A DNA stretch of 61,411 nt from an uncultured virus (IMG/VR IMGVR_UViG_3300007516_000009) (Duplodnaviria; Heunggongvirae; Uroviricota; Caudoviricetes). A program made the translations under genes and the position numbers. Under the pieces are notes generated by a model that worked only from the letters and a program-made list of their open reading frames with translations, was not told the DNA's origin and did no database searches. Positions 1 to 31,562 of the stretch are shown here, in pieces. How positions within the stretch are numbered: the stretch's first letter is position 1; each line of letters starts with the position of its first letter. Where the stretch lies: the IMG/VR virus record IMGVR_UViG_3300007516_000009; one strand, given 5' to 3'.

Positions 1-183
1 TGATGCCAGACTTGACGCCGGACTTGATACCGGACTTGATCACAGACCTGAGGCCAGATCTCAGGCCAGACTTGATTCCGGACTTGACACTCGACTTGAT
101 GTCAGACTTGATCCCAGACCTGATGCTGGACTTTATTATGGACATGATTCCAGATATATAATTCGATCTTTAACGGATTTCAT
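1..183 (-). pseudogene. Decayed MKSV-QV repeat mini-gene, running off the window edge
   Basis: MKSVKDR start, then a frameshift; TGA in a Trp slot of the QV frame. Confidence 0.7.
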
Positions 184-192
184 TGACTTAGT

Positions 193-447
193 CTATAGTT
201 CTTCATTTACTTCTACAAACAACTCAGTCATTTGCTCTGTAGTAGAAAAATGAGCAATAACAACCAACAAAGCGTCGCAGTATTTCAGATCATAGGCCAA
301 GTCTTCTTTCGTATGATCTTCCGTCGCGGGTTGCTTCTCAATGCGCGCAATAAGCTTCTTGGTACTCTTCAAAGAATCAATCAACGACAAGCGAGTAATA
401 ATATCCGCTGTTTCGTAATCCAGCCGAATTCCTTCTAAATAGATCAT
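193..447 (-). CDS. Hypothetical protein
   Basis: 84 aa ORF with upstream GGAGG RBS. Confidence 0.7.
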   Translation of the reverse strand: MIYLEGIRLDYETADIITRLSLIDSLKSTKKLIARIEKQPATEDHTKEDLAYDLKYCDALLVVIAHFSTTEQMTELFVEVNEEL

Positions 448-570
448 AGTATGTTCCTCCAGTTAGGTTTGGTTTATTTATTTGTCCATACTCTAAAGAT
501 ATCACGCCCGATCAGTTTATAAATCCTTTGTTTTTATTGAATAATACAGCTCATATTTAACGGATTTCGT

Positions 571-894
571 CTAGTTGCTCCAGCTTTGCTGCCAGACTCG
601 AGGCCGGACTTGACGATGGACTCGATCATAGACCTGATGCGTGACTCGAATCCTGACTTGACGCTCGACTTTATTATCGACTTGATGCAAGACCTGAGGC
701 CGAACTTGATTATAGACTTGTTCCAAGACTCGCTGCTTAACTCGATGCCGAACTTGATTATAGACTGAACCCCGAACTTGACACTGGACTTGATTATAGA
801 CTTGATCAAAGACTTGATCCCGGACTCGATCATAGACTTGACGCCGAGCTTGACCCAAGACTTGAAGCACGACCTGCTTTTTAACGGATTTCAT
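571..894 (-). CDS. MKSV-QV repeat mini-protein (107 aa)
   Basis: MKSVKKQV start, (xxQV)n body. Confidence 0.8.
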   Translation of the reverse strand: MKSVKKQVVLQVLGQARRQVYDRVRDQVFDQVYNQVQCQVRGSVYNQVRHRVKQRVLEQVYNQVRPQVLHQVDNKVERQVRIRVTHQVYDRVHRQVRPRVWQQSWSN

Positions 895-1051
895 TTAGTT
901 GCTCCTGGACCTGATTATAGACTTGATCACAGACTTGATCACAGACTTGACGCCAGACTTGATGACGGACTTGATCCCGGACTTGATCCCGCATTTGACG
1001 CTGGACTTGATGACGGACTTGATCATAGACTTGCTTTTTAACGGATTTCAT
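881..1051 (-). CDS. MKSV-QV repeat mini-protein (56 aa)
   Basis: MKSVKKQVYDQV...EQLNEIR*, stop overlaps the next start region. Confidence 0.8.
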   Translation of the reverse strand: MKSVKKQVYDQVRHQVQRQMRDQVRDQVRHQVWRQVCDQVCDQVYNQVQEQLNEIR

Positions 1052-1208
1052 GTAGTTGCTCCAAGACTCGATCCATGACTCGATATGTGGCTTGGTGCCA
1101 GACTCGATGCCAGATTTGATTAAAGACTTGATTTCCAGAGTCAACTTCGACTTGTCACGCGACTTTATCTAAGACTTGATTCCGGATTTGCTCTTTAACG
1201 GATTTCAT
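1038..1208 (-). pseudogene. MKSV-QV mini-gene with one internal in-frame TGA
   Basis: MKSVKEQIRNQVLDKVA*QV...EQLHEIR*. Confidence 0.7.
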
Positions 1209-1323
1209 TCTCGACTCGATTACGGATTTCATTTCCAGACTGGGCCCAGTAGGACAAGCCGGTTCGCGAACCGGCTTGTTATCTTACTCTCCTGTTTCAG
1301 TAAGAAAGTGCGTGTTCGGCGGC

Positions 1324-1581
1324 CTATACGGCGACGCCGCCCTGGGTCCATGCCTGGAACAGGCCTACCGGCGCCATGCCTTCGGTCCCATCCTCGTGCG
1401 TCCAGCCGGCGGGCGCCTCATAGACCGTGAACCCTCGGTCCATGAAGAAGTCCACCTCCTCGAAGGGGTCGACCTCTGCGGGCGCGACCAGGTGGCATGC
1501 GCGACTCGGTGATGTGGCGCGGACCGAGCTGATGACGCCGGTGGCGAAGTCGATCAGTACGTAGGTCTTGTTGGTATCCAT
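1324..1581 (-). CDS. Hypothetical protein, paralog of 28185-28418
   Basis: Directly behind a promoter cassette; shares TYxLIDF..SPxRA..VYxAPAxW with the paralog. Confidence 0.8.
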   Translation of the reverse strand: MDTNKTYVLIDFATGVISSVRATSPSRACHLVAPAEVDPFEEVDFFMDRGFTVYEAPAGWTHEDGTEGMAPVGLFQAWTQGGVAV

Positions 1582-1656
1582 AATCTGTCTCCTGTTTCAA
1601 TATAGTTACTATATCACACTCAGAAACGATGTTAACAATTATTTTTAAAATCTTTT
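1582..1656 (-). promoter_or_regulatory. Repeated early promoter+RBS cassette, copy 1
   Basis: TTAACA-17bp-TATAGT with TG extension, then AACTATATTGAAACAGGAGA-ATG. Confidence 0.85.
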
Positions 1657-1666
1657 ATAAAGCGTA

Positions 1667-2218
1667 TTAGCCCGCAACCGCAAATATTTCTGCGATGCTA
1701 TCATATAAGTCGAATTGCCCGCAAACTAACTCATGTTTACCCGCTTTAGGAAAGTCAACTATTTTAGAATAGGGCGATTTCCGCGCGTATATCACAACAC
1801 CGGCAGTCTTATATAGTTTATTCCATACATATCGGCCGCCAGGCGATTGGCTGTCACCCGCCTTGAGTGTGATATCTAGCTTAGTCAATATGAACTTATA
1901 GAGCTTAATAGCTAGGTTGTCGCCGCGGAACCGACTATCAACTTTTAGCACATTAATGCACCACACATTACGCGCTTTTGATAGTCCCACTAAAGCAACA
2001 ACTCGATGTTGAGTTTCCATCTCAGACGGAGACTCAACTAGCCAACTATCTCGTCGAACTCGCTTAGTTCTACAGTCATATGCCCGGACTATAATACTCC
2101 ATTGATCTACGGTTTCAATATAAATATCGTACCCAGAAACACGACCGATAAGTTTCTGATCGTCACGGCGATCATACCCAAGCGTGACTCTTTTGTCCAT
2201 CTCAATTCTGTCGACCAT
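1667..2218 (-). CDS. GNAT-like acetyltransferase-fold protein
   Basis: VDSRFRGDNLAIKLY (motif-A-like) and QSPGGRYVW. Confidence 0.5.
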   Translation of the reverse strand: MVDRIEMDKRVTLGYDRRDDQKLIGRVSGYDIYIETVDQWSIIVRAYDCRTKRVRRDSWLVESPSEMETQHRVVALVGLSKARNVWCINVLKVDSRFRGDNLAIKLYKFILTKLDITLKAGDSQSPGGRYVWNKLYKTAGVVIYARKSPYSKIVDFPKAGKHELVCGQFDLYDSIAEIFAVAG

Positions 2219-2285
2219 TGGACTTTTCTACTTTCTCAATATTAAGTATATCATAACTGACTGTTGGTAACAGAAATATGGCTGG

Positions 2286-2498
2286 TCATCCTCGGATTTC
2301 ATGTAGTTGCTCCCAGACCTGATGCCGGACTCGAATACTGACTTGACGCCAGACTTGCTGCAAGACTCGATCACAGACTCGATTGTGGACTTGATACAAG
2401 ACTTGATACTCACAGACTTGATCTCGGACTTGACGCTCGACTTGATCCCAGACTTGATATTGGACTTGATCCTGGAGTTGATATTTAACGGATTTCAT
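2286..2498 (-). CDS. MKSV-QV repeat mini-protein (70 aa)
   Basis: MKSVK start, xxQV repeats, EQLHEIRG end. Confidence 0.8.
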   Translation of the reverse strand: MKSVKYQLQDQVQYQVWDQVERQVRDQVCEYQVLYQVHNRVCDRVLQQVWRQVSIRVRHQVWEQLHEIRG

Positions 2499-2607
2499 TT
2501 AGTTGCTCCTGGACTCGACCTGTAACTTGCCGCCGAACTTGATGCCAGACTTGACGCTCGACTTGCTGCCAGACTTGATTATAAACTTGATCTGTAACAG
2601 ATTTCAT
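2485..2607 (-). CDS. MKSV-QV repeat mini-protein (40 aa)
   Basis: Hand-translated MKSVTDQVYNQVWQQV...EQLNEIR*; AGGAG RBS. Confidence 0.75.
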   Translation of the reverse strand: MKSVTDQVYNQVWQQVERQVWHQVRRQVTGRVQEQLNEIR

Positions 2608-2622
2608 CTAGTTCTCCTTGAC

Positions 2623-2811
2623 TTAACCCAAGACTTGATCCCGAACTCGATTTCCGATTCGATCCCAGACTCGATTTCCGATTCGATCCCAGACTCGATC
2701 ATCGACTCGATTCCAGACTTGATTCCGGACTTGACCCCGGACTTGATCATCGACTTTATCCCGGACTTGATACCGGACTTGATTATAAACTTGATCTTTA
2801 ACAGATTTCAT
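2623..2811 (-). CDS. MKSV-QV repeat mini-protein (62 aa)
   Basis: ORF track; AGGAG RBS. Confidence 0.8.
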   Translation of the reverse strand: MKSVKDQVYNQVRYQVRDKVDDQVRGQVRNQVWNRVDDRVWDRIGNRVWDRIGNRVRDQVLG

Positions 2812-2826
2812 CTAGTTCTCCTTGAC

Positions 2827-2931
2827 TTAACCCAAGACTTGACGCAAGACTTGATACCGGACTTGACGCTCGACTTGATTATAGACTTGATCCCAGATTT
2901 GATCCCAGACTTGCGCTTTAACGGATTTCAT
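2827..2931 (-). CDS. MKSV-QV repeat mini-protein (34 aa)
   Basis: Hand-translated MKSVKAQVWDQIWDQV...QVLG*. Confidence 0.75.
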   Translation of the reverse strand: MKSVKAQVWDQIWDQVYNQVERQVRYQVLRQVLG

Positions 2932-3136
2932 CTAGTTGCTCCCAGACTTGATCCCAGACTTGATACCGGACTTGATCCTCGACTTTATCCCGGACTCGAT
3001 TCCAGACTTGATTCCGGACTTGACCCCGGACTTGATCATCGACTTTATCCCGGACTCGATTCCAGACTTGATTCCGGACTTGACCCCGGACTTGATCATC
3101 GACTTGATCATGGACTTGATGTTTAACGGATTTCAT
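2918..3136 (-). CDS. MKSV-QV repeat mini-protein (72 aa)
   Basis: ORF track; contains an exact 60-bp tandem duplication. Confidence 0.8.
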   Translation of the reverse strand: MKSVKHQVHDQVDDQVRGQVRNQVWNRVRDKVDDQVRGQVRNQVWNRVRDKVEDQVRYQVWDQVWEQLDEIR

Positions 3137-3197
3137 CTAGTTGTTCCTTAACTTGATCATAGACTCGATCCCAGACTTGATGTTTAACGGATTTCAT
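3123..3197 (-). CDS. MKSV-QV repeat mini-protein (24 aa)
   Basis: MKSVKHQVWDRVYDQVKEQLDEIR*. Confidence 0.7.
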   Translation of the reverse strand: MKSVKHQVWDRVYDQVKEQLDEIR

Positions 3198-3212
3198 CTA
3201 GTTCTCCTTGAC

Positions 3213-3401
3213 TTAACCCCAGACTTGATGCCAGACTTGATGCCAGACTCGCTTACCGACTCGATGCCGAACTTGATTATAGACTGAATTCCGAACTTGA
3301 CGCTGGACTTGATTATAGGCTTGATTCCAGACTTGACGCTCGACTTGATGCCAGACTTGACGCTCGACTTGATTATAAACTTGATCTTTAACAGATTTCA
3401 T
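3213..3401 (-). CDS. MKSV-QV repeat mini-protein (62 aa)
   Basis: ORF track; AGGAG RBS. Confidence 0.8.
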   Translation of the reverse strand: MKSVKDQVYNQVERQVWHQVERQVWNQAYNQVQRQVRNSVYNQVRHRVGKRVWHQVWHQVWG

Positions 3402-3416
3402 CTAGTTCTCCTTGAC

Positions 3417-3557
3417 TTAACCCCAGACTTGATGCCAGACTTGATGCCAGACTCGCTTACCGACTTGATGCCGGACTTGATCATAGACTTGATACCGGAC
3501 TTGATCCTCGACTTGATGACGGACTTGATTATAAACTTGATCTTTAACAGATTTCAT
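3417..3557 (-). CDS. MKSV-QV repeat mini-protein (46 aa)
   Basis: Hand-translated MKSVKDQVYNQVRHQV...QVWG*. Confidence 0.75.
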   Translation of the reverse strand: MKSVKDQVYNQVRHQVEDQVRYQVYDQVRHQVGKRVWHQVWHQVWG

Positions 3558-3572
3558 CTAGTTCTCCTTGAC

Positions 3573-3809
3573 TTAACCCCAGACTTGACGCTGGACTTGA
3601 TCATAGACTCGATTCCCGACTTGACGCCAGACTTGATCATAGACTTGACGCTGGACTTGACGCTGGACTTGACCCCAGACTTGATCATCGACTTGATCCT
3701 GGACTTGACGCTGGACTTGATGCAAGACTTGATGCAAGACTTGACGCTCGACTTTATCATAGACCTGAGGCCGGACTTGATCCCGGATTTGCTTTTTAAC
3801 GGATTTCAT
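3573..3809 (-). CDS. MKSV-QV repeat mini-protein (78 aa)
   Basis: ORF track. Confidence 0.8.
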   Translation of the reverse strand: MKSVKKQIRDQVRPQVYDKVERQVLHQVLHQVQRQVQDQVDDQVWGQVQRQVQRQVYDQVWRQVGNRVYDQVQRQVWG

Positions 3810-3954
3810 TTATCTGATCCTTAACTTGATGCCAGACTTGATCCTGGACTTGATCCCGGACTTGATCATCGACTCGACCCAAGGCTTGATCCCAGACTTG
3901 ATGCCAGACTTGCTGCTCGACTCGATCATGGACTTGCGCTTTAACGGATTTCAT
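3796..3954 (-). CDS. MKSV-QV repeat mini-protein (52 aa)
   Basis: Hand-translated MKSVKAQVHDRV...DQINEIR*. Confidence 0.75.
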   Translation of the reverse strand: MKSVKAQVHDRVEQQVWHQVWDQALGRVDDQVRDQVQDQVWHQVKDQINEIR

Positions 3955-4039
3955 CTAGTTGCTCCCAGACTTGATCCCAGACTTGATCATAGACTTGACC
4001 CGTGACTTGATCCCGGATTTGCTTTTTAACGGATTTCAT
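3941..4039 (-). CDS. MKSV-QV repeat mini-protein (32 aa)
   Basis: MKSVKKQIRDQVTGQVYDQVWDQVWEQLDEIR*. Confidence 0.75.
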   Translation of the reverse strand: MKSVKKQIRDQVTGQVYDQVWDQVWEQLDEIR

Positions 4040-4257
4040 TTATCTGATCCCTGACTTAATCCCCAACTTGATCCATCGACTTGATCCCAGACTAGATCCC
4101 AGGCTTGACGCTGGACTTGCTCATGGACTTGATGCCGGACTTGATCCTCGACTCGATTCCCGACTCGATGCCAGACTTGATCCCCGACTCGATCATAGGT
4201 GCGAGGCCAGACTTGCTCCCGGCCTTGCTGCCAGACTTGCGTTTTAACGGATTTCAT
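4036..4257 (-). CDS. MKSV-QV repeat mini-protein, first gene of the array
   Basis: GAGG RBS, MKSVKTQV start; the C-terminus drifts out of the repeat frame. Confidence 0.8.
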   Translation of the reverse strand: MKSVKTQVWQQGREQVWPRTYDRVGDQVWHRVGNRVEDQVRHQVHEQVQRQAWDLVWDQVDGSSWGLSQGSDK

Positions 4258-4283
4258 AACAAACCTCATATAATCCTATGATA

Positions 4284-4312
4284 ACTATATCACACAGAGA
4301 TCGTAATGTCAA
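4284..4312 (-). promoter_or_regulatory. Sigma70-type early promoter driving the MKSV array
   Basis: TTGACA(4312-4307)-17bp-TATAGT(4289-4284) with TG extension. Confidence 0.8.
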
Positions 4313-4315
4313 TCT

Positions 4316-5170
4316 TTAGATTGGGCCAGACGTAGTATCAGATCCGAGCGTGTGGGTATGAGTTTTAAGACTAATTGCATCCACTATAATATCACCTGAA
4401 GCAGCAACTTCGGTAAGCGATCCAGCAATATTTGTTATAACATTACCGGCAACATCAGTAGTCATATTCCCAGCAACAGTCCATGTTATGTTACCGTCGA
4501 TTATTACTTCCATATCGCCAGTAATATGAAGCCGGTCATTACCAGTAACTGAGCGCCAGCCATTTTTATGCTGTGTAACTACATCTCCATTAGGGTGTAT
4601 CTCAATAAACGTACCAGAGTTATGATAAATATGGATTCGTTCCGCACCCGGAGTATCGTCAAATTCCAATAAGTGGCCAGACTCGGTCTGCATAGTATGA
4701 TTCCGCGGATACACAGCTGCATACGGATCATTGGGTTCATCAATAGTGGGGTCAGTGACTTTAGTTATGTTTTTAATACCGCGTGCTCGCCGAGAAACAT
4801 CCGGTTCTTCTATTCTAGTTGGGTAAGTCCCGGTTGGATCATTAAAGCCTTTTGTTATGTCTGCAAAGTCTGTAGGTATGCCAGCGATAGTTCCAAAGAC
4901 CATTGGTCGTTGTGCTTCGTGTCCATCAAGAAAGAATCCAATGACCCACGATCCTTCTACAAGACCAGAAGTTGAGCCGATATCGCCCATAGAAGCACTA
5001 GTGACCGGATTAATAGTCTGGGCCCATGGTAATGAGGCTGTTGGTACTTCGGTCTTATTAGCGGAATGAAAGCTAAAGCATCGCACTCGGACTCGACCAA
5101 GTTCAAGCGGATCATCTCGCGCTTCGACTACACCAAACCACCAGATAAATTCATCACCTAAGTTCTTCAT
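4316..5170 (-). CDS. gp5: Baseplate central spike gp5-like, without lysozyme domain
   Basis: WWFGVVE..DPLELGRVRVR OB-fold; TESGHLLEFDDTPGAERI; beta-helix repeats; C-terminal HTH motif. Confidence 0.92.
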   Translation of the reverse strand: MKNLGDEFIWWFGVVEARDDPLELGRVRVRCFSFHSANKTEVPTASLPWAQTINPVTSASMGDIGSTSGLVEGSWVIGFFLDGHEAQRPMVFGTIAGIPTDFADITKGFNDPTGTYPTRIEEPDVSRRARGIKNITKVTDPTIDEPNDPYAAVYPRNHTMQTESGHLLEFDDTPGAERIHIYHNSGTFIEIHPNGDVVTQHKNGWRSVTGNDRLHITGDMEVIIDGNITWTVAGNMTTDVAGNVITNIAGSLTEVAASGDIIVDAISLKTHTHTLGSDTTSGPI

Positions 5171-6603
5171 AGCAATATAGACTCCTCTTCCATTACAAGT
5201 TCCCTAGATTCTTCAAGTACTTTCTTAGCATATGTATCCTTAACACACTCAAGCACCGTAAAGAATGTATTATCCTTCTTATTATAAGTATGCCGAACAG
5301 CGGTAACAAAGAACTTCTTGCCATGAAGTAGATTCAATCGTGTCATATACTCATCTATTTCACTACTCTGAGGTATATGGAGATTAACAACAGCTCCAAT
5401 CTCTATATCAGTATTGCCAGGAATGCCAACAGTAACCACAATGTTATTGAGCTGAAGCCGTGAAACAACATCATACTTCATAAAGCGATGTAGCCTCCGT
5501 GGGTTCTGCAACTGCGGATCATTAGCTAACGCACCAGCCAGATAGCTCTTATTCGTATAGTTCTCACCAAGATTAGAAACAATGTAGTTCTTCGACCGAG
5601 CTTCATGCGGCCGACCGAAGATAGATTCATGTGAGTACGGTAGATTAAGCTCCAGATGACTAATCTTCTGATAATCTCGGCCGTACTGGAATGTATCTTC
5701 CGTGTACTTCTTGAGGATAGGATCGATAGTATCCACTCGGTGAGCATATAAGCCATTATGCATGTTCTCACGTGTATCTAACTGCTTCTCGAACGTGATG
5801 CTAGTGATCTTCTGATAGTCCCGGATAGTATCTTCGCCAGTATTCCGGCCCTCTTCGAGTAACGCATCTACCAGATAGAAATCCTCTACCGGCGGCATAG
5901 CCAGCAGAGAATCCAGTGTCCGGAAGTACCAGCCGTCGTATGACTCATAGAAGACGAAGTTAGATGCCCGTGAGCCATCTGAGAACGGCGTAGTTTCTAC
6001 CAGATGGCCAGTGTCGTTATAACAACGCACCAACCCCGAAGCGGCGGTTTCTGCTTCTGCACAGATTTGATTGATTTTTTGAAGTGGTGATGCTCTACTA
6101 AATAAGAAGTGATGTGTTCCAGAAGTTTCTTGGAGATACAGATTTTTTTTTCGTACGTGCATGTGATCAGTGGGAGTTGCCTTTAGATACCTATCATATA
6201 TAGAGCGAACTATGGATGTAGCTGGTAAGCCTGAGTATGTTGCGGAGAAACTGGTGTTTTCATTAGAAATAAGTTCTTGTGATGCTGCTCGGAGGATATA
6301 CACGTCAGAGCGGACGGTTTCTTTGCTTCTATTCTCTATCTTATATACTCGGAATACATAAGTTCTTAGTTTTTGTAGTGATGGAGTACGAAAGCTGAGA
6401 AGAATAGTTTCATCTCCTACTATTGGAGTCAGTTCTATAGTTCCATTAGAATCTACCATAAGAAGTTCTAGTTCAGTGCCCGAACCCATGATATCATGGA
6501 AGATCGTGTATTCGAGCATAAGGTCCCGAATATCAAGAAGATTTCTTCTATAGTTCATTAGAAAACATTGAACTAATTCTAAATCATATATCTTATACTC
6601 CAT
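5167..6603 (-). CDS. Baseplate hub protein (gp27-like)
   Basis: Lies between gp53 and gp5; FVFYESYDGWYFRTLDSL and IPGN..G motifs. Confidence 0.7.
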   Translation of the reverse strand: MEYKIYDLELVQCFLMNYRRNLLDIRDLMLEYTIFHDIMGSGTELELLMVDSNGTIELTPIVGDETILLSFRTPSLQKLRTYVFRVYKIENRSKETVRSDVYILRAASQELISNENTSFSATYSGLPATSIVRSIYDRYLKATPTDHMHVRKKNLYLQETSGTHHFLFSRASPLQKINQICAEAETAASGLVRCYNDTGHLVETTPFSDGSRASNFVFYESYDGWYFRTLDSLLAMPPVEDFYLVDALLEEGRNTGEDTIRDYQKITSITFEKQLDTRENMHNGLYAHRVDTIDPILKKYTEDTFQYGRDYQKISHLELNLPYSHESIFGRPHEARSKNYIVSNLGENYTNKSYLAGALANDPQLQNPRRLHRFMKYDVVSRLQLNNIVVTVGIPGNTDIEIGAVVNLHIPQSSEIDEYMTRLNLLHGKKFFVTAVRHTYNKKDNTFFTVLECVKDTYAKKVLEESRELVMEEESILL

Positions 6604-7160
6604 TATGCGAAAAGTCCAGTGGCTTCAGATAAAAAGCGCGATAGATAAGCAATATCCAATACCTTTATCGTCCGACGAGATTCGTTGAGCCGCTCCTCGT
6701 ACTCATACTGAGTTAATGTCCGGCGGTCATTAGCCGCAAGTGTAGCATACGTAGTTGCGTCTACCGTAATATAGCGCTCTGGAAGAACAACCCCATCATA
6801 CTGGACTGACTGGACCCGAAGTATCTGCTCATAACTGTGTATAGTCGTCATTGCACTGTCTACTGACCCATACTTACTTTTAATATAACTAAGGAAAACT
6901 GAATACGATAATGGTAAATCATACGCTGGATCAAGAATATCATTGACTACAAGCAAAACCCAATCCAATGTAGGATCACCGTAATACCTGTCAGCAATAT
7001 ACTCAAGGGACTGACCATCCGATAAATCATGCGTATAATAAAGCGCCGACCGAGTTCGTAATACATCCCTGAGCTTATACCGAGCAAATAAATTCCTGAC
7101 TGTTCGCGCTCCGCCTATATCGTAACTTATAACTGGATGTTTATTAAAAAAGAATGACAT
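6603..7160 (-). CDS. gp53: Baseplate wedge subunit gp53
   Basis: IADRYYGDPTLDWVLLVVNDI LysM-like motif; YEYEERLNE. Confidence 0.9.
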   Translation of the reverse strand: MSFFFNKHPVISYDIGGARTVRNLFARYKLRDVLRTRSALYYTHDLSDGQSLEYIADRYYGDPTLDWVLLVVNDILDPAYDLPLSYSVFLSYIKSKYGSVDSAMTTIHSYEQILRVQSVQYDGVVLPERYITVDATTYATLAANDRRTLTQYEYEERLNESRRTIKVLDIAYLSRFLSEATGLFA

Positions 7161-7164
7161 ATAC

Positions 7165-8127
7165 CTACCTATTATATTCGTTAATTTCATTTTTAGTAAT
7201 AATAGCAACTTCTTGGAAACTTAACGTAAGCTGAATAGCAACAGGCGCCTTCTGTGACGTTCCATCGTCATTCTCAACCGAATGATACAACGGAATGCCC
7301 TCTGCATGATAATTAACCTCTACCGACTTTAATACCGATGGCGCTACGTTAAATAGAAAATCGTCATGATGAAAATCAATATCAAACTGCTCTGGGTATT
7401 CGAAGAAATGCTGATTCAAGTTCCTTTCAAGGAAATAATCCGGCGCTGAATGATACTTGAGAAGCTTGATGATATCAAGAATAGCAACCGACTCAGTATA
7501 ATCTTTAGCAATAAGCTTCCAACTAAACTGATGCTCGCGCAGCTGAGGTGCGTTATATACCAGCGCCATGAACGGATTGCGCGCCAGACCAGCACCAACC
7601 ATAGCACCCGCTGCCATTACACCAACACCCGGTAATGCTTCAATAACTCCAAGGACCGCCGACGCGGCAAACCCACCAGCCGCCTGAGCAATTCCGGTTT
7701 TTCGTTGAAATGTTGCCGCCGCAGACGTAAGATCACCGCTTGAAAGTCCACCATTCCAAACATCGTCTGCTAGCGATTTGATACCAGCTCCACCGTTCTC
7801 AATTTCTCTTCGAGTAAACGCGCCTGCGCCCGCTGCAAGGTTGCCAATATTACTTAATCCAGTCGTTGAGTAGTCTTGACCGTATATAGTACCTACGTTT
7901 AGTGGCATAGGCAAGAAAATACGGGCGATGTCTTCTTTTATTGAATAATCATCCCGTTTTCTAAATACGCGATGGTTAATTCTAATCGCCATCCAATGGT
8001 CTATTTCTTCAATGTTAGCTGGAAAAAAATAACTCTTTTGTTTTTTTTCAAGCGCGAATTCTAAATCGCTTTTAGCATTACGAGCAAAGTTCAGCTTACC
8101 GCTTAATTTTGCATTACTCTTGGCCAT
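7165..8127 (-). CDS. gp48: Baseplate tail-tube cap gp48
   Basis: IFLPMP; NPFMALVY..PQLREHQFSWKL; LTLSFQE. Confidence 0.85.
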   Translation of the reverse strand: MAKSNAKLSGKLNFARNAKSDLEFALEKKQKSYFFPANIEEIDHWMAIRINHRVFRKRDDYSIKEDIARIFLPMPLNVGTIYGQDYSTTGLSNIGNLAAGAGAFTRREIENGGAGIKSLADDVWNGGLSSGDLTSAAATFQRKTGIAQAAGGFAASAVLGVIEALPGVGVMAAGAMVGAGLARNPFMALVYNAPQLREHQFSWKLIAKDYTESVAILDIIKLLKYHSAPDYFLERNLNQHFFEYPEQFDIDFHHDDFLFNVAPSVLKSVEVNYHAEGIPLYHSVENDDGTSQKAPVAIQLTLSFQEVAIITKNEINEYNR

Positions 8128-14192: not shown

Positions 14193-14407
14193 ATCGGAAG
14201 CTTATTGATTTTTTCCTTCATCATGTTCAGATCGCTAGCTTCGCCCGCGATGGTTTGCTTGATCCGAACGTTGATGAGTTTTGCGGCTGTTTCTACTTCT
14301 ATATCGTTCTGTTCGCAATAATGCACAATTGCTTCCATATAAGGAATATGGAGGTCTCGCACAATAGTTTCTATTTTGAGTGAAAATGTTTTCGTATCAT
14401 CTATCAT
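14189..14407 (-). CDS. gp33: Late transcription coactivator gp33
   Basis: YMEAIVHYCEQNDIEVE..KLI; synteny with gp59 and gp32. Confidence 0.9.
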   Translation of the reverse strand: MIDDTKTFSLKIETIVRDLHIPYMEAIVHYCEQNDIEVETAAKLINVRIKQTIAGEASDLNMMKEKINKLPI

Positions 14408-14613
14408 TTAGTTTCCTTAAAATCGGGTGATGTTGAAAAATGGTATCTACCATTTCGGATTTGATCGTGAATGATAAGCCGACATTCGGTAGAGCTCATA
14501 TGCTCAAACTTTATAAAGATTTGGTTTCTAGGATGATGATCTGTTTTGAGCCCGATGCTAGTCCATATTGGACTTTCTAGCCAATCCCATACCTGTGTTC
14601 TAACGGATTTCAT
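14404..14613 (-). CDS. Diverged MKSV-family small protein
   Basis: MKSVRTQVWDW start; ATGA overlap with upstream gene. Confidence 0.7.
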   Translation of the reverse strand: MKSVRTQVWDWLESPIWTSIGLKTDHHPRNQIFIKFEHMSSTECRLIIHDQIRNGRYHFSTSPDFKETK

Positions 14614-15130: not shown

Positions 15131-15169
15131 TGAAAAAGTGGTCTTTTTTTCTGTTGCAAGGAAAAAAGA

Positions 15170-15438
15170 CCAAAACCCCGATTAAAATACAAGTAGGATT
15201 AAGCCGCTAGGCGAAGTTCCATTTTGTAATTATCATTGCTAACATTTAAGTTTGCATTTACTAATTTGACCCATAAGGCAGTCATCCCTGTAACTCCAGT
15301 CATCTACTAATTGCCCGTCGATCCTATTTCCCGCCCATCATAAGGACACATATCGACAGGATTTCTATGTGTCCTTATGGTGGACGGGTCGGGTACTGCC
15401 CCCGAGTCCGAGTCAATGTTGAACTTCCTTCAACGTTA
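15170..15438 (-). ncRNA. ssrA: Permuted two-piece tmRNA, tag (A)NLNVSNDNYKMELRLAA
   Basis: Acceptor piece ending CCCGUCCACCA (15378); 14-bp intervening hairpin; coding piece starting GGGCGGGAAAUAGGAUCGAC (15336); G3-U70 pair; tag frame 15255-15199. Confidence 0.92.
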
Positions 15439-15444
15439 CAAATA

Positions 15445-15452
15445 TATTTATA
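15445..15452 (-). promoter_or_regulatory. T4-type late promoter in front of the tmRNA
   Basis: TATAAATA. Confidence 0.75.
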
Positions 15453-15464
15453 CTATAAGCTAAT

Positions 15465-15491
15465 CCGGGAGGGACCGAAATCCCTCCCGAG
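15465..15491 (-). terminator. UUCG hairpin after the DUF932 gene
   Basis: CGGGAGGGA-TTTCGG-TCCCTCCCG. Confidence 0.65.
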
Positions 15492-16550: not shown

Positions 16551-16742
16551 TTACGAATTAACCCGCGCATTGATTTTGTTCCACGCTGTAGCAAAAACAA
16601 CATCGCCTAGCATGCCCTGGACGTCGAGCCCAGGGCTCAATTGGTAGAACGCTTTACGTGTCACAGTAATAACTCCTTTATTGACACACCCACAAATTAA
16701 ATCTACTGGTATATGTTTGACTCTGCGACGGACCGATTTCAT
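16551..16742 (-). CDS. Diverged MKSV-family small protein
   Basis: MKSVRRRV start; ATGA overlap. Confidence 0.65.
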   Translation of the reverse strand: MKSVRRRVKHIPVDLICGCVNKGVITVTRKAFYQLSPGLDVQGMLGDVVFATAWNKINARVNS

Positions 16743-16933
16743 CTGATAACTTTCCAAATCTGCTGCTTGATGTCTTTTTGAATAGCGTTATTAATACGCG
16801 ATTCATTCGCCAACCAAACCCCGTCAAAAATCGTGTTCAAAGCATCACACCAAATTCGTTGATCGACACGAGCTAATATAAGATCATCCATATGTTGTCT
16901 GATATCTTTAATTTCGCGCCTGACCGATTTCAT
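16739..16933 (-). CDS. Diverged MKSV-family small protein
   Basis: MKSVRREI start; ATGA overlap. Confidence 0.7.
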   Translation of the reverse strand: MKSVRREIKDIRQHMDDLILARVDQRIWCDALNTIFDGVWLANESRINNAIQKDIKQQIWKVIR

Positions 16934-17076
16934 GTCACTTTCCGTATATATTTTTGCATGTCATCTTCGCTATATCTCGCCGTCGCCGCCCAATTACGAA
17001 AGGCGCGGCATTCTTGCCCAGTTTCTTCACACGGTTCTTTATTTGGACAAGTATCACACGGTATTTCGTCGTTCAT
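16930..17076 (-). CDS. Small Cys-rich hypothetical protein
   Basis: MNDEIPCDTCPNKEPC..EC; GAGGA RBS. Confidence 0.6.
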   Translation of the reverse strand: MNDEIPCDTCPNKEPCEETGQECRAFRNWAATARYSEDDMQKYIRKVT

Positions 17077-17258
17077 TTAATATCCTCGTATAGGTGTTTT
17101 TCTATCGGTTCGGCGAGCCGCTGCCAAATCCGCTCATAAATCGATGAGGCCGGTACTTTGAGACCGGCATATAAGATTCGATCATCGACTTGATCCCAGA
17201 CTCGATTCTTAACTTTATCCCAGGCCTGACCCCTAACTTCCCACCTAACGGATTTCAT
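17073..17258 (-). CDS. Partly diverged MKSV-QV protein
   Basis: MKSVRWEVRGQAWDKVKNRVWDQVDDRI, then unique sequence. Confidence 0.75.
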   Translation of the reverse strand: MKSVRWEVRGQAWDKVKNRVWDQVDDRILYAGLKVPASSIYERIWQRLAEPIEKHLYEDIK

Positions 17259-17765: not shown

Positions 17766-19004
17766 TTAACCCTTCATACAAACGACCTGTTTTAGCGTGT
17801 GAATGATCCAAACCAAATCAGACTGAGCCCTCATCACGGCGTCAATATCTTTATATGCGCCTGGGGTTTCGTCGATCACATCAAGGTCCTTCCTGCACTC
17901 AACTCCGTCCGTTGCTTTAATATGATCTTTTAAGCTGAATGTACGCTTTGCTTCTCCCCTAGACATAGCCCGTCCAGCTCCATGTGAACACGTATTGAAG
18001 CTATCCGCGTTGCCTTTACCTAAAACAATATATGATTTAGCACCCATGCTACCAGGAATGATGCCGAGATCACCAGTACGGGCACGGACCGCCCCTTTGC
18101 GTGTCAACCAAACATTTTTTCCAAAGTGGTTTTCCAACGACACATAGTTGTGGTGGCAGTTTACAGCGGTCTCATCGGTTGTGACATCTATTTTCATGAA
18201 TTTCTCGAATGCTTTAAGCGCAGCTGCCATCATAACTTCACGATTTGCGGTTGCAAACGACTGAGCCCAAGATACCCCAGCGATATAATCCTGGAAATGG
18301 TCGGTACCTTCTGGAAAATAAGCGAGATTTGTATCTGGAAGATTGATGAACCACTTCCGCATATCTTCCTTAGCCAGTTCTATAAAGTAAGAACCGATAG
18401 CATTTCCGATTCCTCGTGATCCAGAGTGAAGCATTACCCAAACTATGTTCTCCTCATCTAAACAAACCTCAACGAAATGATTCCCGGTTCCTAAAGTTCC
18501 GAGATGAGAAACGGATCGAGCCATAGCTGATCCGACTTTGATAATTTTTGGATGTCGATCAATAAGTTCGTTCATGCCCCGCGAAAGTTCGCCAAACTTT
18601 GTGTTGACCGCAGCTGGCACATCGCCCCAAGCACCTCGATCTCCGGGCTTTCCATTATTGGTACGGCCGTGCGGAATTGCGGTCTCAAGCTCAGTACGTA
18701 AACCGTGAAGATTATCGGGAAGCTGATCCGCAACAATGTTCGTCCGTACCGCCATCATGCCACACCCGATATCAACTCCAACCGCTGCAGGAATAATGGC
18801 ACCCAGAGTTGGGATTACTGACCCAACAGTAGCACCCATGCCCCAGTGAACATCAGGCATAACAGCAACGTGGCTGTGAATAAATGGCAGCGCAGCAACA
18901 TTCCGAAGCTGTTCTAGTGCAGCATCTTCAAGCGGAACTCCTTTCACCCAAGCTTTAATTGGTACATTTTTTCCCTCAATATATTCATATTCACGTTCCA
19001 TCAC
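17766..19004 (-). CDS. rtcB: RtcB RNA ligase
   Basis: MPDVHWG; VGVDIGCG; LGTLGTGNHF; HSGSRG; HHN; IPGSMG; SHGAGR; AYKDI. Confidence 0.97.
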   Translation of the reverse strand: MMEREYEYIEGKNVPIKAWVKGVPLEDAALEQLRNVAALPFIHSHVAVMPDVHWGMGATVGSVIPTLGAIIPAAVGVDIGCGMMAVRTNIVADQLPDNLHGLRTELETAIPHGRTNNGKPGDRGAWGDVPAAVNTKFGELSRGMNELIDRHPKIIKVGSAMARSVSHLGTLGTGNHFVEVCLDEENIVWVMLHSGSRGIGNAIGSYFIELAKEDMRKWFINLPDTNLAYFPEGTDHFQDYIAGVSWAQSFATANREVMMAAALKAFEKFMKIDVTTDETAVNCHHNYVSLENHFGKNVWLTRKGAVRARTGDLGIIPGSMGAKSYIVLGKGNADSFNTCSHGAGRAMSRGEAKRTFSLKDHIKATDGVECRKDLDVIDETPGAYKDIDAVMRAQSDLVWIIHTLKQVVCMKG

Positions 19005-27219: not shown

Positions 27220-28098
27220 TTAAGTGCGAACCTCGATGTTATATTCACCGGGCTTCAGATCATACGTCCACGCGTTCGCCTCCAGAGCGGTCGTCATTTC
27301 TGGAGGAACCGGCATTGCAAATTCCCGGCCAGTGGCGCAAACCACTTTAAGGAACTTTTCACGATCGTCGAAGTCGGGAAGCTGGACTTCGACGAGGGTC
27401 CCGATCATCGGGTCTTCATCGGCATCGATTACCGTTGCGTCGAGTTCGCGGAGGACTCGTGCCCAGCCGAGAATTTCGCAAGCGCACCGGCGCTGTTCGA
27501 CGTTTTCCCATGTCAGCGCAGTGACCGCGGCCAGTTCCGCCTTCTTGGTGATCCATTCCTCGGGGATCCGAGTACCGTGCCAGGAATAAATCGAATATCC
27601 ATCGCGATACCGAATTGCCGGGCCATCTTCGCAGTGAAGACGCTCGACTTCGTCGAATTTGATGTATTCCGGCCGGTCCTGGAAGACGACAACGTCTTCA
27701 TAGGCCGAAAGCCAGCCGCAATGACTCGCCAGGTCGATCAACCCATCGAGCTTGTGGCACTCCTCGATGTTGAGAACGTCCCGGAAATATTGGTAAAACC
27801 CGAGCCAATTGGCATCGTGGTTACCATAAAACATTTCCGACAAAATCTCGGAGTCGGTCATCTTGGTACCGTCGGCGAGGGCAATTTCCTTAATCAAGGC
27901 AATTGCCGACACCGGGCTCGCGGCTTTGTAGAACCGCGTCGGAGCAGGGAGGTCGGCGGAACGGTATGCAGAACATATAGCAGCCGTAGCCGCCGCCATA
28001 TCAACTGGCTCAGTCGCGAGCCCGACGGCGATCCACTTGTCTCGATATACATCGAGCATTTTTTCCTGCTCTGCCGTGAGTTCAGTGATCTTCTTCAT
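27220..28098 (-). CDS. DUF6745-like protein
   Basis: LTAEQ..KWIAVGLATEP..YGNHDANWL..RLHCEDGPAI.YRDG..WHG..NVEQRR..LKVVC.TGR..EVRT; family name from recollection. Confidence 0.8.
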   Translation of the reverse strand: MKKITELTAEQEKMLDVYRDKWIAVGLATEPVDMAAATAAICSAYRSADLPAPTRFYKAASPVSAIALIKEIALADGTKMTDSEILSEMFYGNHDANWLGFYQYFRDVLNIEECHKLDGLIDLASHCGWLSAYEDVVVFQDRPEYIKFDEVERLHCEDGPAIRYRDGYSIYSWHGTRIPEEWITKKAELAAVTALTWENVEQRRCACEILGWARVLRELDATVIDADEDPMIGTLVEVQLPDFDDREKFLKVVCATGREFAMPVPPEMTTALEANAWTYDLKPGEYNIEVRT

Positions 28099-28173
28099 AA
28101 TTTATCTCCTGTTTCAATATAGTTACTATATCACGTCTGGAAACGATGTCAACTATTATTTTTAAAATCTTTA
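28099..28173 (-). promoter_or_regulatory. Repeated early promoter+RBS cassette, copy 3
   Basis: TTGACA..TGATATAGTAACTATATTGAAACAGGAGA. Confidence 0.88.
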
Positions 28174-28184: not shown

Positions 28185-28418
28185 TCATGCCTTGCACACG
28201 CCGAGGAGCGGCATATTCAGTTTAATCTCCTTGATGGATGCTTCGACATTCTTATCGGGCATCCAGTCGGCCGGTGCCTTATAAACAAAGTAGGTTCGCC
28301 GCCCGCCGAGACCACCGTCACCGGCGATGCGGGCGGCGGCTCGTCGCGGCGAGGCCTCGGTGGTTACGAAGACCTTGCGGCGGTCGAAGTCGATTAGTGC
28401 GTAGGTCTCGTTAGTCAT
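28185..28418 (-). CDS. Hypothetical protein, paralog of 1324-1581
   Basis: TYALIDF..SPRRA..VYKAPADW. Confidence 0.8.
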   Translation of the reverse strand: MTNETYALIDFDRRKVFVTTEASPRRAAARIAGDGGLGGRRTYFVYKAPADWMPDKNVEASIKEIKLNMPLLGVCKA

Positions 28419-28546: not shown

Positions 28547-28897
28547 TTAGTCAGCGGCCCGCCGAAACCCCTCGGGGATGTATTCGCGCTGGCGCTTGAT
28601 GATGTAATCACCAGGCGGTACCAGCAGAGCCTCATGAGTATCGTGCGACCGAAGATGCGTAATCTCAGTCGGCACGGCCACTTTAAGAAACATTTCGTAG
28701 AGATCGGCCGGCTTCACGTTGGGCTTCTGAAAAGCTTTGACGCGATCCATAGTCATCACGTGATTGTGGCCCGTTTCACTGTGAGCGACCACATAAACGC
28801 CGCCCTCGGGCTCGAACGGCACGAGGTCTGTCGGCAGCTCCTGCAGACGAATGATAACGAAATCGCCCTGAGCAGCCATCTTAGTAAAGGTCTTCAT
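28547..28897 (-). CDS. His-rich small protein, probable partner of the DUF6745-like gene
   Basis: QGD..HSETGHNH..H.RSHDTH..QREY motifs; AGGAG RBS. Confidence 0.75.
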   Translation of the reverse strand: MKTFTKMAAQGDFVIIRLQELPTDLVPFEPEGGVYVVAHSETGHNHVMTMDRVKAFQKPNVKPADLYEMFLKVAVPTEITHLRSHDTHEALLVPPGDYIIKRQREYIPEGFRRAAD

Positions 28898-29524: not shown

Positions 29525-29599
29525 TGGATACCCCACCTGGATTCGAACCAAGCCCTCCTGAGTCAGAGTCAAGCATTCTACCGACTGAACTATGGGGCA
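29525..29599 (-). tRNA. tRNA-Gln(CUG)
   Basis: Cloverleaf, loop CT-CTG-AC, CCA end. Confidence 0.9.
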
Positions 29600-29791
29600 A
29601 GCATTTCGTCCGTCATCTCTAACGAGTATAAACACAAAATAGCTTCTAGCCATGAAAACCAAAGAATGAAATGCCAGTCAGCCGAGAATAAATTCAATAT
29701 CCAATCGAAATCTCCACTGAGCGCCCAGCCAACCAGATATATGGCTGACCAAACGATCCCCGACGTCACGAATATAACCTGTGCAGAAAAC

Positions 29792-30040
29792 TTAGACATT
29801 TTCATGTTCCTGAATTCGATATAAATGATATCCGATATAGGTTCCGACGTGAACCGGCTCACACTGATAATAATCGCTGGTGAAATTTTCACCAGCTGGC
29901 GGATAGTGAAACTTCATATATGCGTCGGCCTCGGCTCGGTCGGGTTGATGAACTTCCACAATGTAGTGTCGAACTACACCCCGATGTTCTTCATCAGACG
30001 CTCGATAAACCCGTGCGGTCACTTCTGAAAGATCCATCAT
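29792..30040 (-). CDS. Hypothetical protein behind promoter cassette
   Basis: 82 aa, AGGAG RBS. Confidence 0.7.
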   Translation of the reverse strand: MMDLSEVTARVYRASDEEHRGVVRHYIVEVHQPDRAEADAYMKFHYPPAGENFTSDYYQCEPVHVGTYIGYHLYRIQEHENV

Positions 30041-30053
30041 TTTAAGACTCCTA

Positions 30054-30110
30054 TCAATATAGTTACTATATCACACCCGGAAACGATGTCAACTATTATT
30101 TTTAAAAAAA
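30054..30110 (-). promoter_or_regulatory. Repeated early promoter cassette, copy 5
   Basis: Same core; begins right after the tRNA-Ser CCA. Confidence 0.85.
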
Positions 30111-30111
30111 G

Positions 30112-30200
30112 TGGCGGATGAGCGAGGTAACGATCCCCAATCCATTCCTGGATCGCATTCCTTAGCGGGGAAGCCCAGAACCATTTCTAGTTGCTCATCC
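30112..30200 (-). tRNA. tRNA-Ser(GCU), atypical loops
   Basis: Long variable arm, loop CC-GCT-AA, GCCA end. Confidence 0.8.
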
Positions 30201-30205
30201 ATTAT

Positions 30206-30282
30206 TGGTGTCCACGGTCGGATTCGAACCGACACTTTACGGAATTTGAACCCGTTGACTCTACCGATTGGCCCACGTGGAC
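30206..30282 (-). tRNA. tRNA-Leu(CAA), short variable loop
   Basis: Loop TT-CAA-AT, GTTCGAATC, ACCA end. Confidence 0.85.
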
Positions 30283-30286
30283 ATGC

Positions 30287-30841
30287 TTAAGCTGCGATTT
30301 TAATTTCGCCCTCCCAGTCCCCAAGGAAATGAACCCAAGACTGATCCGACACATAAATTGGAAACTTGCGGCGCATTGTAAGAAGCTGATAATATGTCGG
30401 CTCAAATGGCTTTATCTTTGGGGCCCATTCTCCAACCGGAAGCCTCGAGCCTTTTCTGAAATTGCATAAATTACAGGCGCAGACTACATTATCCCAGTCA
30501 TGGCGGCCGCCCTTTGCTTTTGGGTGAACATGATCGAAAGTCACTTCCTTAATAGTAAGTGGTCGCTCACAATACACACAAATTCCGTGATCTCGATAAA
30601 AAAGAGACTCGCGGCGAAGCTTCACCTTCTCTTTAATTCGTAAATTATCGTTTCGAGCGATAACTGATGGCCATTTCATTTCTAGATTCGGCGTAAGGAT
30701 TTCCCGATCATATTCAAAAACAGCATGACATGTGCCGTTAAAAATACGCACTACTGCATCTTCCACTGGAATAGAATGTAGGGGAAAGAGGCTGATGGGA
30801 AGATATGTACTATTAAGTACAAGCGTTCTTAAGCCAAGCAC
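30287..30841 (-). CDS. HNH endonuclease (McrA-like)
   Basis: RDHGICVYC..TFDHVHP..GG..WDNVVCACNLCNFRKG. Confidence 0.93.
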   Translation of the reverse strand: MLGLRTLVLNSTYLPISLFPLHSIPVEDAVVRIFNGTCHAVFEYDREILTPNLEMKWPSVIARNDNLRIKEKVKLRRESLFYRDHGICVYCERPLTIKEVTFDHVHPKAKGGRHDWDNVVCACNLCNFRKGSRLPVGEWAPKIKPFEPTYYQLLTMRRKFPIYVSDQSWVHFLGDWEGEIKIAA

Positions 30842-31229
30842 GTGAGTTCTCCTTTACGTAACTAAGAATATAGTCGCGACTGTTGCAACTAATATAGAAA
30901 TGGTGATGTTCATAACCACAATCGGCAAAACAGATAGCACTAAAAATATCGACAAGAAAGATATGAACAGAAAGAAATATCCAACTGAAAACACGAATAT
31001 AGCTACCCAAATAACGAGTACTTCGAGCATATTAGAACTAATACAGCTGATTTTCATTTTATATCCATTCTGAGATATTCAAGTGCCTTTATATATTTAT
31101 CAATCGTTTTAGTCTTTTCTAGATAGTCCAGTTTAAGGCAAGAAAGATTATGCTCGATGTCGAATTGTTTTACTACTCGATTAAGAGTCCACTGTTACTC
31201 CATGTTGAACTTAAACGCTACTGGCCCAA

Positions 31230-31552: not shown

Positions 31553-31562
31553 ATTTTGTACA

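Follow-up and report, generated by a model that had tools for sequence, protein, structure and literature searches.

The repeat genes at one end of this phage sequence very probably are genuine protein-coding genes derived from DUF6745, as judged from their sequence, and we favor, at a probability of roughly 50%, the explanation that they constitute a recombination-shuffled set of helical binding peptides that replaces an arm of DUF6745. The source is an uncultured T4-like freshwater phage, and the window, i.e., the whole analyzed stretch of 61,411 nucleotides, contains an MKSV(xxQV)n array of 14 open genes and five remnants, with a sigma-70-type promoter at its head. The repeat of these mini-genes equals the helical internal tract of phage DUF6745 proteins, which lies between the N-terminal helices and the YGxHDxxW motif, and the phage's own DUF6745, encoded at a distance of 23 kb from the array, has no QV tract. 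The features of the window are as follows:

4284..4312, minus strand: sigma-70-type promoter at the array head, with the TGTGATATAGT motif; consensus score 11/12
4036..4257, minus strand: mini-gene 1, 73 aa; one inserted nt close to the 3' end; overlaps the next gene by 4 nt
3941..4039, minus strand: mini-gene 2, 32 aa; overlaps the next gene by 14 nt
3796..3954, minus strand: mini-gene 3, 52 aa; 14-nt overlap
3573..3809, minus strand: mini-gene 4, 78 aa; a Gln codon replaced by TAA; 15-nt spacer carrying AAGGAG
3417..3557, minus strand: mini-gene 5, 46 aa; spacer junction
3213..3401, minus strand: mini-gene 6, 62 aa; spacer junction
3123..3197, minus strand: mini-gene 7, 24 aa; 14-nt overlap
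2918..3136, minus strand: mini-gene 8, 72 aa; 14-nt overlap; 64 identical bases in common with mini-gene 10
2827..2931, minus strand: mini-gene 9, 34 aa; spacer junction
2623..2811, minus strand: mini-gene 10, 62 aa; spacer junction
2485..2607, minus strand: mini-gene 11, 40 aa, MKSVT start; 14-nt overlap
2286..2498, minus strand: mini-gene 12, 70 aa; single 3-nt insertion; end of the main block
2228..2302, minus strand: remnant start (MKSE...), 24-aa ORF without repeats
1667..2218, minus strand: unrelated 183-aa ORF within the array; no Pfam, PHROG or NCBIfam match
1608..1635, minus strand: second promoter, same class as the array-head promoter; 5' of the 85-aa ORF and the second block
1324..1581, minus strand: unrelated 85-aa ORF; no family match
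1254..1279, no strand assigned: stem-loop, perfect 11-bp stem without U run; z −2.26, 3/200 shuffles
1052..1232, minus strand: start remnant (1232), then a broken copy (from 1208) interrupted by an internal TGA behind its 17th codon
881..1051, minus strand: mini-gene 13, 56 aa; 14-nt overlap
571..894, minus strand: mini-gene 14, 107 aa; shifted by 1 nt at the 3' end; next to it, at 570, a dead ACG start
193..447, minus strand: unrelated 84-aa ORF; no family match
1..183, minus strand: frameshifted copy, repeats continuing past the window edge
27220..28098, minus strand: DUF6745 gene, 292 aa, without tetrapeptide tract; PF20530, 120.1 bits (cut-off 27)
28547..28897, minus strand: His-rich all-beta partner gene, 116 aa (phrog_27831), the usual neighbor of DUF6745
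17073-17258, minus strand: degenerate single mini-gene; profile E 1.5e-8
16739-16933, minus strand: degenerate single mini-gene; profile E 1.4e-4
14404..14613, minus strand: degenerate mini-gene, weak match; profile E 9e-4

The three degenerate mini-genes outside the array were found with a profile from 29 non-window mini-genes that was run against 556 ORFs. A sequence-only reading of the DNA had counted about 19 copies, and this number stands, as the minus strand of positions 1-4257 contains 18 ATGAAATCYG starts in addition to the dead ACG start. Copy-by-copy comparison also bore out the claim of 14 open copies of 24-107 aa, no two of which are identical, and the promoter that had been placed ahead of them is indeed found at 4312-4284 (TTGACA-17-TATAGT, 11/12). 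Of the minus-strand anchors C[AG][AG]GTC, 151 fall into the first three 2-kb bins, and each bin elsewhere holds 0-3. However, the array is not the single chain of ORFs that had been described: the main block comprises 12 copies (2286-4257), and after it come a 1.05-kb insert, which contains two unrelated ORFs, the second promoter and the hairpin, then a second block (571-1232), a further ORF (193-447), and the frameshifted remnant (1-183). One public contig extends the array by 185 bases past window position 1, and 128 of these are array-like. Of the 12 junctions between open mini-genes, only seven overlap, whereas at the other five the stop lies 15 nt upstream and there is an own AAGGAG. In a similar way, lengths that change in four-codon steps were confirmed within a junction class for 11 of the 14 copies, but two copies are shifted by 1 nt close to the 3' end and a third contains 3 inserted nt, and one copy opens with MKSVT instead of the MKSVK start assigned to each. 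Each mini-gene is composed of a 4-5 residue cap, the repeats, and a short tail. Five of the 19 copies are dead and the ends of two others are shifted, so that single copies are dispensable.

The near-fixation of Q-V or R-V in 12-bp units that had been noticed from the letters is reflected in the 150 in-frame units, in which position 3 is Q in 114, R in 28, K in 6, and S in 2 cases, and position 4 is V in 143, while the variable positions hold 48 types of di-residues. The anchor spacing is 12 nt in 155 of 181 cases. Codon usage in the array is highly uniform (CAA for 109/114 Gln, GTC for 132/143 Val, T at unit position 6 in 140/150), and the 12-nt register continues beyond TAA stops, which could indicate that the working molecule is RNA or DNA, such as a guide-like array in which CAAGTC is fixed and six variable bases specify the target. 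We consider this extremely improbable. The fixed hexamer changes synonymously among lineages, with QV codons that are uniform per locus and different among loci (CAAGTC, CAGGTT, CAGGTA, CAAGTG, CAGGTG, CAAGTT, CAAGTA), an Rfam search of the array gave no match, and RNA folding of two array segments was inconsistent (z −0.23 vs −2.25). Moreover, stops are purged: a stop at the first variable codon occurs in 0/150 in-frame units, and one stop was observed in the window vs 6.8 expected from a frame-independent point-mutation null (P 0.009), which was used in place of an independence null (18.4 expected) that inflates the effect. With the point-mutation null, 2120 units of 33 other loci had one stop vs 65.8 expected. 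A structured or guide RNA array was therefore rejected, given the reading-frame constraint, the lack of hexamer conservation at the nucleotide level, and the absence of an Rfam family. As stops are purged and QV codons are lineage-specific, it is the protein level that is conserved. Positive selection was not seen, with 16 non-synonymous vs 7 synonymous differences in matched genes.

An assembly artefact was rejected, as no sign of one was found in public contig pieces or in two other assemblies: the main block is reproduced without gaps with 100% identity in L147 and 99.95% identity in L132. Within the source phage no variation was seen, and the public contig pieces in place, among those listed, show 0 differences. 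Between close strains, 13 length differences were found in 27 matched gene pairs, and all of them are multiples of 12, so that the sign of a plain minisatellite named in the sequence-only reading, indels other than multiples of 3, is not seen. Four strain pairs with 99.5-99.6% identical flanks have no identical mini-gene in common; lineages E-H, in which the gene finder detected no genes, contribute only flank identity. These sequence comparisons show that close strains gain, lose, and exchange units and entire copies in 12-bp steps, which supports the recombination-driven diversification assumed in the sequence-only reading in the form of whole-unit shuffling. A coding minisatellite that itself does little, spread by recombination and kept open just for ribosome run-on to downstream genes, would account for the dead and shifted copies, the near-neutral substitution ratio, the unrelated ORFs that come after each repeat block, and a start signal that is itself made from the repeat unit. 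We nevertheless regard it as unlikely: the QV amino acids are kept although their codons change between lineages, a separate ribosome-binding site is present at five of the 12 junctions and a separate promoter in the insert, the W/R-D/N spectrum equals that of the DUF6745 tract, and a mere joint would need no tie to a tract-less DUF6745.

A period-4 xxQV unit with variable residues rich in W/R and then D/N characterizes the DUF6745 internal tract, and it is also found in the mini-genes; example proteins with a tract are P0027, L010, L017, and L078, and the family also corresponds to phrog_31813. A PF20530 scan of five array copies gave no match, and sub-threshold Pfam and PHROG matches of the mini-gene copies were set aside as weak. 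Among 31 mini-gene-bearing viral records, 17 hold DUF6745, and the QV tract is present in 0/17 (11 distinct proteins). Likewise, 10 of 15 scanned metagenome loci (9 contigs) hold a tract-less DUF6745 that often adjoins the array. Conversely, in 15 of 20 records with a tract-bearing DUF6745, all mini-gene pattern matches fall within the tract, and 3/20 have matches of unplaced position (L092 was excluded from this set, as its DUF6745 identity was not established). Six loci had been scored with both forms (L131 being a repeat of L130), of which five were rejected as classifier errors and the remaining one, L142, is a fusion. On the sequence level, therefore, tract-bearing phages are mostly without mini-genes, and free genes accompany the tract-less DUF6745. 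In a FastTree analysis, array-linked tract-less proteins occupy at least three places, and as 10 of 12 belong to one clade, the association represents few independent events and may reflect mere descent from a split gene. Absence of the tract is also seen without an array, as phage LMM01 has a tract-less DUF6745 and zero mini-gene profile matches in 162 kb. Among 150 DUF6745 representatives, irrespective of context, 103 have no clear tract (9168 representatives were obtained at E ≤0.001).

The copies might also serve as donor cassettes, i.e., as a reservoir from which tract variants enter the DUF6745 arm by recombination, the cassettes' own products being of minor importance. Arrays often adjoin DUF6745, and the array end of L142 carries an MKSVK-capped tract that continues in frame into the C-terminal domain of DUF6745, with the 14-nt overlap known from the array; this single contig of 1086 bp could be a chimera across repeats. 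We judge the donor function to be distinctly unlikely, as the DUF6745 of the source phage and 17/17 in array-bearing viral records offer no tract to recombine with, silent donors would not show such a strong purging of stops, and only 4 among the 120 relatives listed start near the tract, none of them with an MKSV cap.

Helical peptides had been proposed from the sequence, and modeling agrees with this. The AlphaFold model of the tract-bearing DUF6745 P0027 (pLDDT 91.7) shows helices at 60-86 and 94-132, and thus the tract as a pair of long alpha-helices in this prediction. The Val/Gln stripe is continuous along the predicted helices, and in 14/14 copies the hydrophobic moment is higher at 90 than at 100 degrees. 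Such Gln/Val-rich helices could also assemble by themselves into bundles or fibers, and variation would then tune the solubility or the properties of a mixed polymer without any specific target. The unbroken stripe, the hydrophobic moments, and the long-helix model are compatible with such a material, but the peptide net charge spreads from −2 to +14 across copies, and the early-type promoter is common to small non-structural genes, and we regard self-assembly as quite improbable. No solved relatives of DUF6745 were found by sequence, and the search for similar folds yielded nothing clear, either for DUF6745 (best Foldseek E 0.47, best Z 4.0) or for the His-rich partner (E 0.18, Z 3.1); an identity of the latter as UreE was set aside, as the match is too weak (E 0.08). 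A viral structure library gave just 3 rows at E ≤0.001, all DUF6745-like or uncharacterized, and in a protein atlas the mini-gene led to unnamed viral clusters and one DUF6745 row below the naming bar.

The TGTGATATAGT promoter motif occurs at 10 sites vs 1.04 expected, and one of them (28125-28135) is located 5' of the DUF6745 gene, so that the array and DUF6745 have a motif in common. The promoter class of the array is also found at other small, non-structural genes. We see the array as a multigene family in which each short peptide would be the free-standing form of the DUF6745 tetrapeptide tract. One early transcript could give rise to the whole set, with translation either coupled or re-initiated; helices would pack against each other along the Val/Gln stripe, and the two variable residues would face the binding partner. 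The arm would be required by the phage in one of two forms, within DUF6745 or as individual peptides, and separate genes would permit many variants to be offered simultaneously. The likeliest job would be the binding of host proteins in phage-host conflict, for example to block defence, possibly in concert with the tract-less DUF6745 and the His-rich protein next to it; for such a variable host-binding, counter-defence-type role we see even odds, its counter-defence part being an analogy to the unrelated Tweety gp54. A far bolder idea, to which we assign little probability, is that xxQV represents a one-turn protein code in which each variable di-residue reads one target element (a base or a partner-helix step), with DUF6745 and the His-rich partner as effector and the array as recombination-programmed specificity modules in trans that direct one effector to many targets. 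Should the peptides act as counter-defence or specificity modules, phages would have a means to diversify proteins without reverse transcriptase and to provide many variants per infection. As single peptides of 24-107 aa can be produced and assayed individually, the split form makes the long-standing puzzle of variable tetrapeptide repeats in phages testable.

The system had not been recognized as a described one, and a literature search did not find a free-standing array of this kind in print, but the repeat is that of the DUF6745 internal tract, and uncultured phages commonly carry arrays of this type according to pattern matches: the exact mini-gene start pattern was found in 0 viral contigs, and looser patterns matched many. 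One copy, used as the query of a word-based protein search, matched 1 of 5 candidates, and direct BLAST of the array against cultured phages gave no match, an outcome that the low-complexity filter makes uninformative. The module appears widespread and unstudied, with a variable helical arm that is either built in or supplied by a gene library, the two forms being mutually exclusive. The internal tract resembles the array in its 12-bp unit, QV anchor, W/R and then D/N residues, and locus-uniform codons; the array differs in being split into 14 genes, each with a start cap and junctions, and by more di-residue types (6.1 vs 4.5 per 8 units).

Diversity-generating retroelements also produce hypervariable coding sequences in phages, by adenine-specific variation relative to an invariant template. 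In the array, all bases and the unit number vary, and no reverse transcriptase was found in 10 array-bearing records (4 of them ≥90% complete) or among 80 window proteins. This reading was rejected, as variable positions switch among T, C, G, and A, and none of the 15 compared ORFs is an invariant copy. TALE repeats have about 34 residues with one variable di-residue each, and with a unit of 4 residues, the variable di-residue is the sole likeness. The insert within the array, flanked by a repeated early-type promoter and a stem-loop, may resemble the PeSL (promoter/stem-loop) cassettes of T4-type phages, as far as the accessible parts of their descriptions go (PMC2839356, PMC4122927); the stem-loop at 1254-1279 is not predicted as a terminator and lies 330 nt off the second promoter, and the comparison concerns the insert alone, leaving the repeat genes unexplained. 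The mini-genes also resemble gp54 of mycobacteriophage Tweety (with Che8 gp57 and PMC gp51), in which, according to the accessible part of its description, two residues of each 12-bp unit are fixed and two are variable, the first and second codon positions vary, and the repeat number differs (PMC2884959). Tweety gp54 differs in being a single gene with an Ala-Ala fixed pair and unique N- and C-terminal regions, and such terminal domains are absent from the mini-genes; a comparison with the DUF6745 profile gave no homology (hhalign probability 0.1%), and a Pfam scan of gp54 no match. The repeat number of gp54 tunes the escape from the Phrann gp29/gp30 defence, according to the accessible part of that study (PMC9262239).

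The array lies in a part of a T4-like phage, the window carrying Pfam matches to gp5, gp53, a baseplate protein, gp32, gp59, RNase H and ribonucleotide reductase, and it comprises 14 open genes and five remnants, in keeping with the sequence-only reading of about 19 MKSV mini-genes, 14 of them open.

Features of the array and its genomic setting
4312–4284, minus strand: promoter TTGACA-17-TATAGT, upstream of the main block
4257–2286, minus strand: main block, 12 open copies
Between main and second block, minus strand: 1.05-kb insert; contains two ORFs unrelated to the mini-genes, another promoter and a hairpin of 11 bp
1232–571, minus strand: second block, one broken copy followed by two open copies
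3' of the second block: unrelated ORF, then a frameshifted copy running past the window edge
15140–15484, minus strand: permuted tmRNA of alphaproteobacterial type (RF04321, 95.8 bits; RF01849, 83.8 bits)
17766–19004: RtcB ligase
29528–37189: 20 tRNA matches

In every copy, an MKSV cap leads into a run of 12-bp units, NNNNNN-CAA-GTC, and the regularity claimed for these units was borne out by an anchor spacing of 12 nt in 155 of 181 cases. The promoter proposed to head the array was likewise found in its place, and its sigma-70 consensus would suggest early transcription. The copies are connected by two types of junction, each made out of a repeat unit: in six cases the QL(D/N)EIR end of the upstream gene spans the next start in a 14-nt overlap (one further junction overlaps by 4 nt), and in five cases TAA replaces a Gln codon and is followed by a 15-nt spacer carrying AAGGAG. 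Ten sites carry the motif TGTGATATAGT, where 1.04 would be expected; among them are sites in the array, the insert and the gene for the phage protein DUF6745 (PF20530). Two small minus-strand ORFs 3' of promoter motifs of this type (1324–1581 and 28185–28418) have similar starts by eye, the second sitting between DUF6745 and its usual neighbor, a His-rich all-beta partner; public contigs have loose ends at 1579–1657, as a repeated promoter cassette would give. The 183-aa ORF of the insert (1667–2218, minus strand), which by eye may be acetyltransferase-like, had no family match.

The tmRNA type gives a hint of the host group, and the stretch is present in three freshwater DNA runs, each from a separate study. 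A G+C-rich minus-strand block at about 37900–41030 (0.56–0.62 vs about 0.42) may be foreign DNA or a chimera; it encodes DUF6378 and a DUF7666-like ORF (40545–41027, slightly below the cut-off) that terminates in a short Ala-Ala tetrapeptide run, the second tetrapeptide type in the window.

An assembly artefact is unlikely to underlie the array, as two metagenome contigs, one of which may be the window's own source, match the window without gaps at 1345–3574 (100%) and 3506–7291 (99.95%) and jointly span the main block with unchanged copy order. Among the in-place contig pieces listed from the three public runs, each covering part of the stretch, no differences were found, and one piece extends 185 bases beyond position 1 into more array-like DNA. 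Within-phage variation was seen neither in these pieces nor in the two metagenome contigs. Identical stretches of up to 64 nt are common to different copies, as expected from exchange among them.

The conserved object of the array is, judging by its codons, the peptide. A single base change turns any of five common first codons (TGG, TAT, GAG, CAG and TTG) into TAG, yet a frame-independent count found one stop in 151 window units against 6.8 expected, and one against 65.8 in 2120 units from 33 other loci, some of them related. Gln-Val codons are almost uniform inside one locus, with seven codon pairs across loci; since the locus-finding patterns specified these codons, this demonstrates that synonymous versions exist and are homogenized, not how frequent they are. 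By these counts, the mini-genes show themselves to be genes of the translated type; an array acting at the RNA level is very improbable, and the window scan assigned the array to no Rfam family.

Comparison of relatives shows, as far as assembled repeats can be trusted, that the array changes by whole units and that copies are born and lost. Four strain pairs with flanks 99.5–99.6% identical shared no identical mini-gene, and one pair with 99.9% identical flanks shared five of six. Lengths differed in 13 of 27 matched gene pairs, and all 13 differences were multiples of 12 nt, counting open genes only and with repeats being prone to misassembly. Positive selection was not seen in the codon differences of matched genes (16 non-synonymous, 7 synonymous). 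Di-residue types per eight units numbered 6.1 in mini-genes (33 loci) vs 4.5 in internal DUF6745 tracts (18 loci; p 1.6e-4, uncorrected for kinship), a diversity that relaxed constraint could equally cause. We regard a near-neutral coding minisatellite as rather unlikely.

The xxQV unit is, as sequence comparison shows, common to the mini-genes and DUF6745. Pattern scans yielded two viral sets, of 68 and 24 loci, and a set of 45 distinct metagenome loci, overlapping and with several per contig or lineage; by a rough classifier, at least two free mini-genes occur in 51/68, 5/24 and 27/45, respectively, and the repeat lies within a long protein in 7/68 and 14/24 viral loci, which is DUF6745 in the cases displayed. 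The window's own DUF6745 (27220–28098) has no tract. Among its best 150 representatives, 47 have a period-4 tract at a single site, with anchors QV, QL, SV, SL, AT, AV and others, and the rule used detected none in 103.

In the records covered, free mini-genes and tract-bearing DUF6745 proved mutually exclusive. A PF20530 search of 31 mini-gene-bearing viral records, picked for greater length, found DUF6745 in 17, none with a QV tract (11 distinct proteins); the 14 without a match are mostly fragments, two being 87% and 92% complete. Tract-less DUF6745 was present in 10 of 15 metagenome loci scanned (9 contigs), often adjoining the array together with the partner. Conversely, in 15 of 20 records with tract-bearing DUF6745 every pattern match fell inside the tract; in two the other matches are accounted for by the gene spanning the record ends, and in three the matches could not be placed. 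In a FastTree analysis of the DUF6745 C-terminal part, 10 of 12 array-linked proteins and the window's own fell into one 13-row clade (support 97), and the other two were placed apart, each adjoining a QV-tract protein, so that the association amounts to about three events. A tract-less DUF6745 need not go with mini-genes, as Microcystis phage LMM01 has such a protein and gave no hit with the mini-gene profile. In this phage (L113, 4950–6086, plus strand), DUF6745 and its neighbor lie amid replication genes; being cultured, it offers an experimental handle on the family.

One fusion gene (contig L142, 278–1084, plus strand) has an MKSVK start, a tract and an in-frame DUF6745 domain (132 bits), and closes a mini-gene array through the same 14-nt overlap type, on a lone 1086-bp contig that could be a chimera. 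Among 120 relatives listed, four start near the tract and none has the MKSV cap. Elsewhere, a short MKSV repeat start is in frame with an unrelated protein bearing a signal-peptide-like stretch (L120, 140–619, plus strand), and partner and DUF6745 form a single 361-aa ORF in L103 (1048–2133, plus strand), separate in the near-identical L104, through either deletion or assembly error. In the window, four single MKSV-start genes flank a DUF932 gene (14404–14613 and 16551–17258, minus strand), three of them matching the mini-gene profile weakly; a DUF932 homologue adjoins partner, DUF6745 and array in three relatives (L117, L125, L143), and the window's DUF932 region may therefore be an older site of the array.

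In the AlphaFold model of a tract-bearing DUF6745 protein (P0027; 136 sequences, pLDDT 91.7), the tract forms two long helices (60–86 and 94–132), the middle being less confident. Neither DUF6745 nor the partner had a clear match among solved folds; the invariant Q10, D12, E41, H44, H88, E105 and D116 of the partner (116 aa; 28547–28897, minus strand; 3784 relatives) suggest a putative metal site. We infer, with a probability of about one half, that an early transcript yields a mixed set of helical peptides, which would stand in for the arm of DUF6745 and bind proteins of the host. That the copies serve as donor cassettes is unlikely. Assembly of the peptides into a polymer appears quite improbable.

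In agreement with the earlier impression that this is not a described system, no description of such mini-gene arrays was found in the literature searched, most subscription papers lying outside its reach. According to the reports on Tweety gp54, that gene has a 12-bp repeat with variation at codon positions one and two (PMC2884959), and its repeat number tunes escape from prophage defence (PMC9262239), which makes it the sole functional precedent seen there for variable 12-bp repeat genes, although it is not homologous to DUF6745. The repeat unit is part of a named but uncharacterised family with a studied analogue, and its arrangement as a library of separate genes has not been described.
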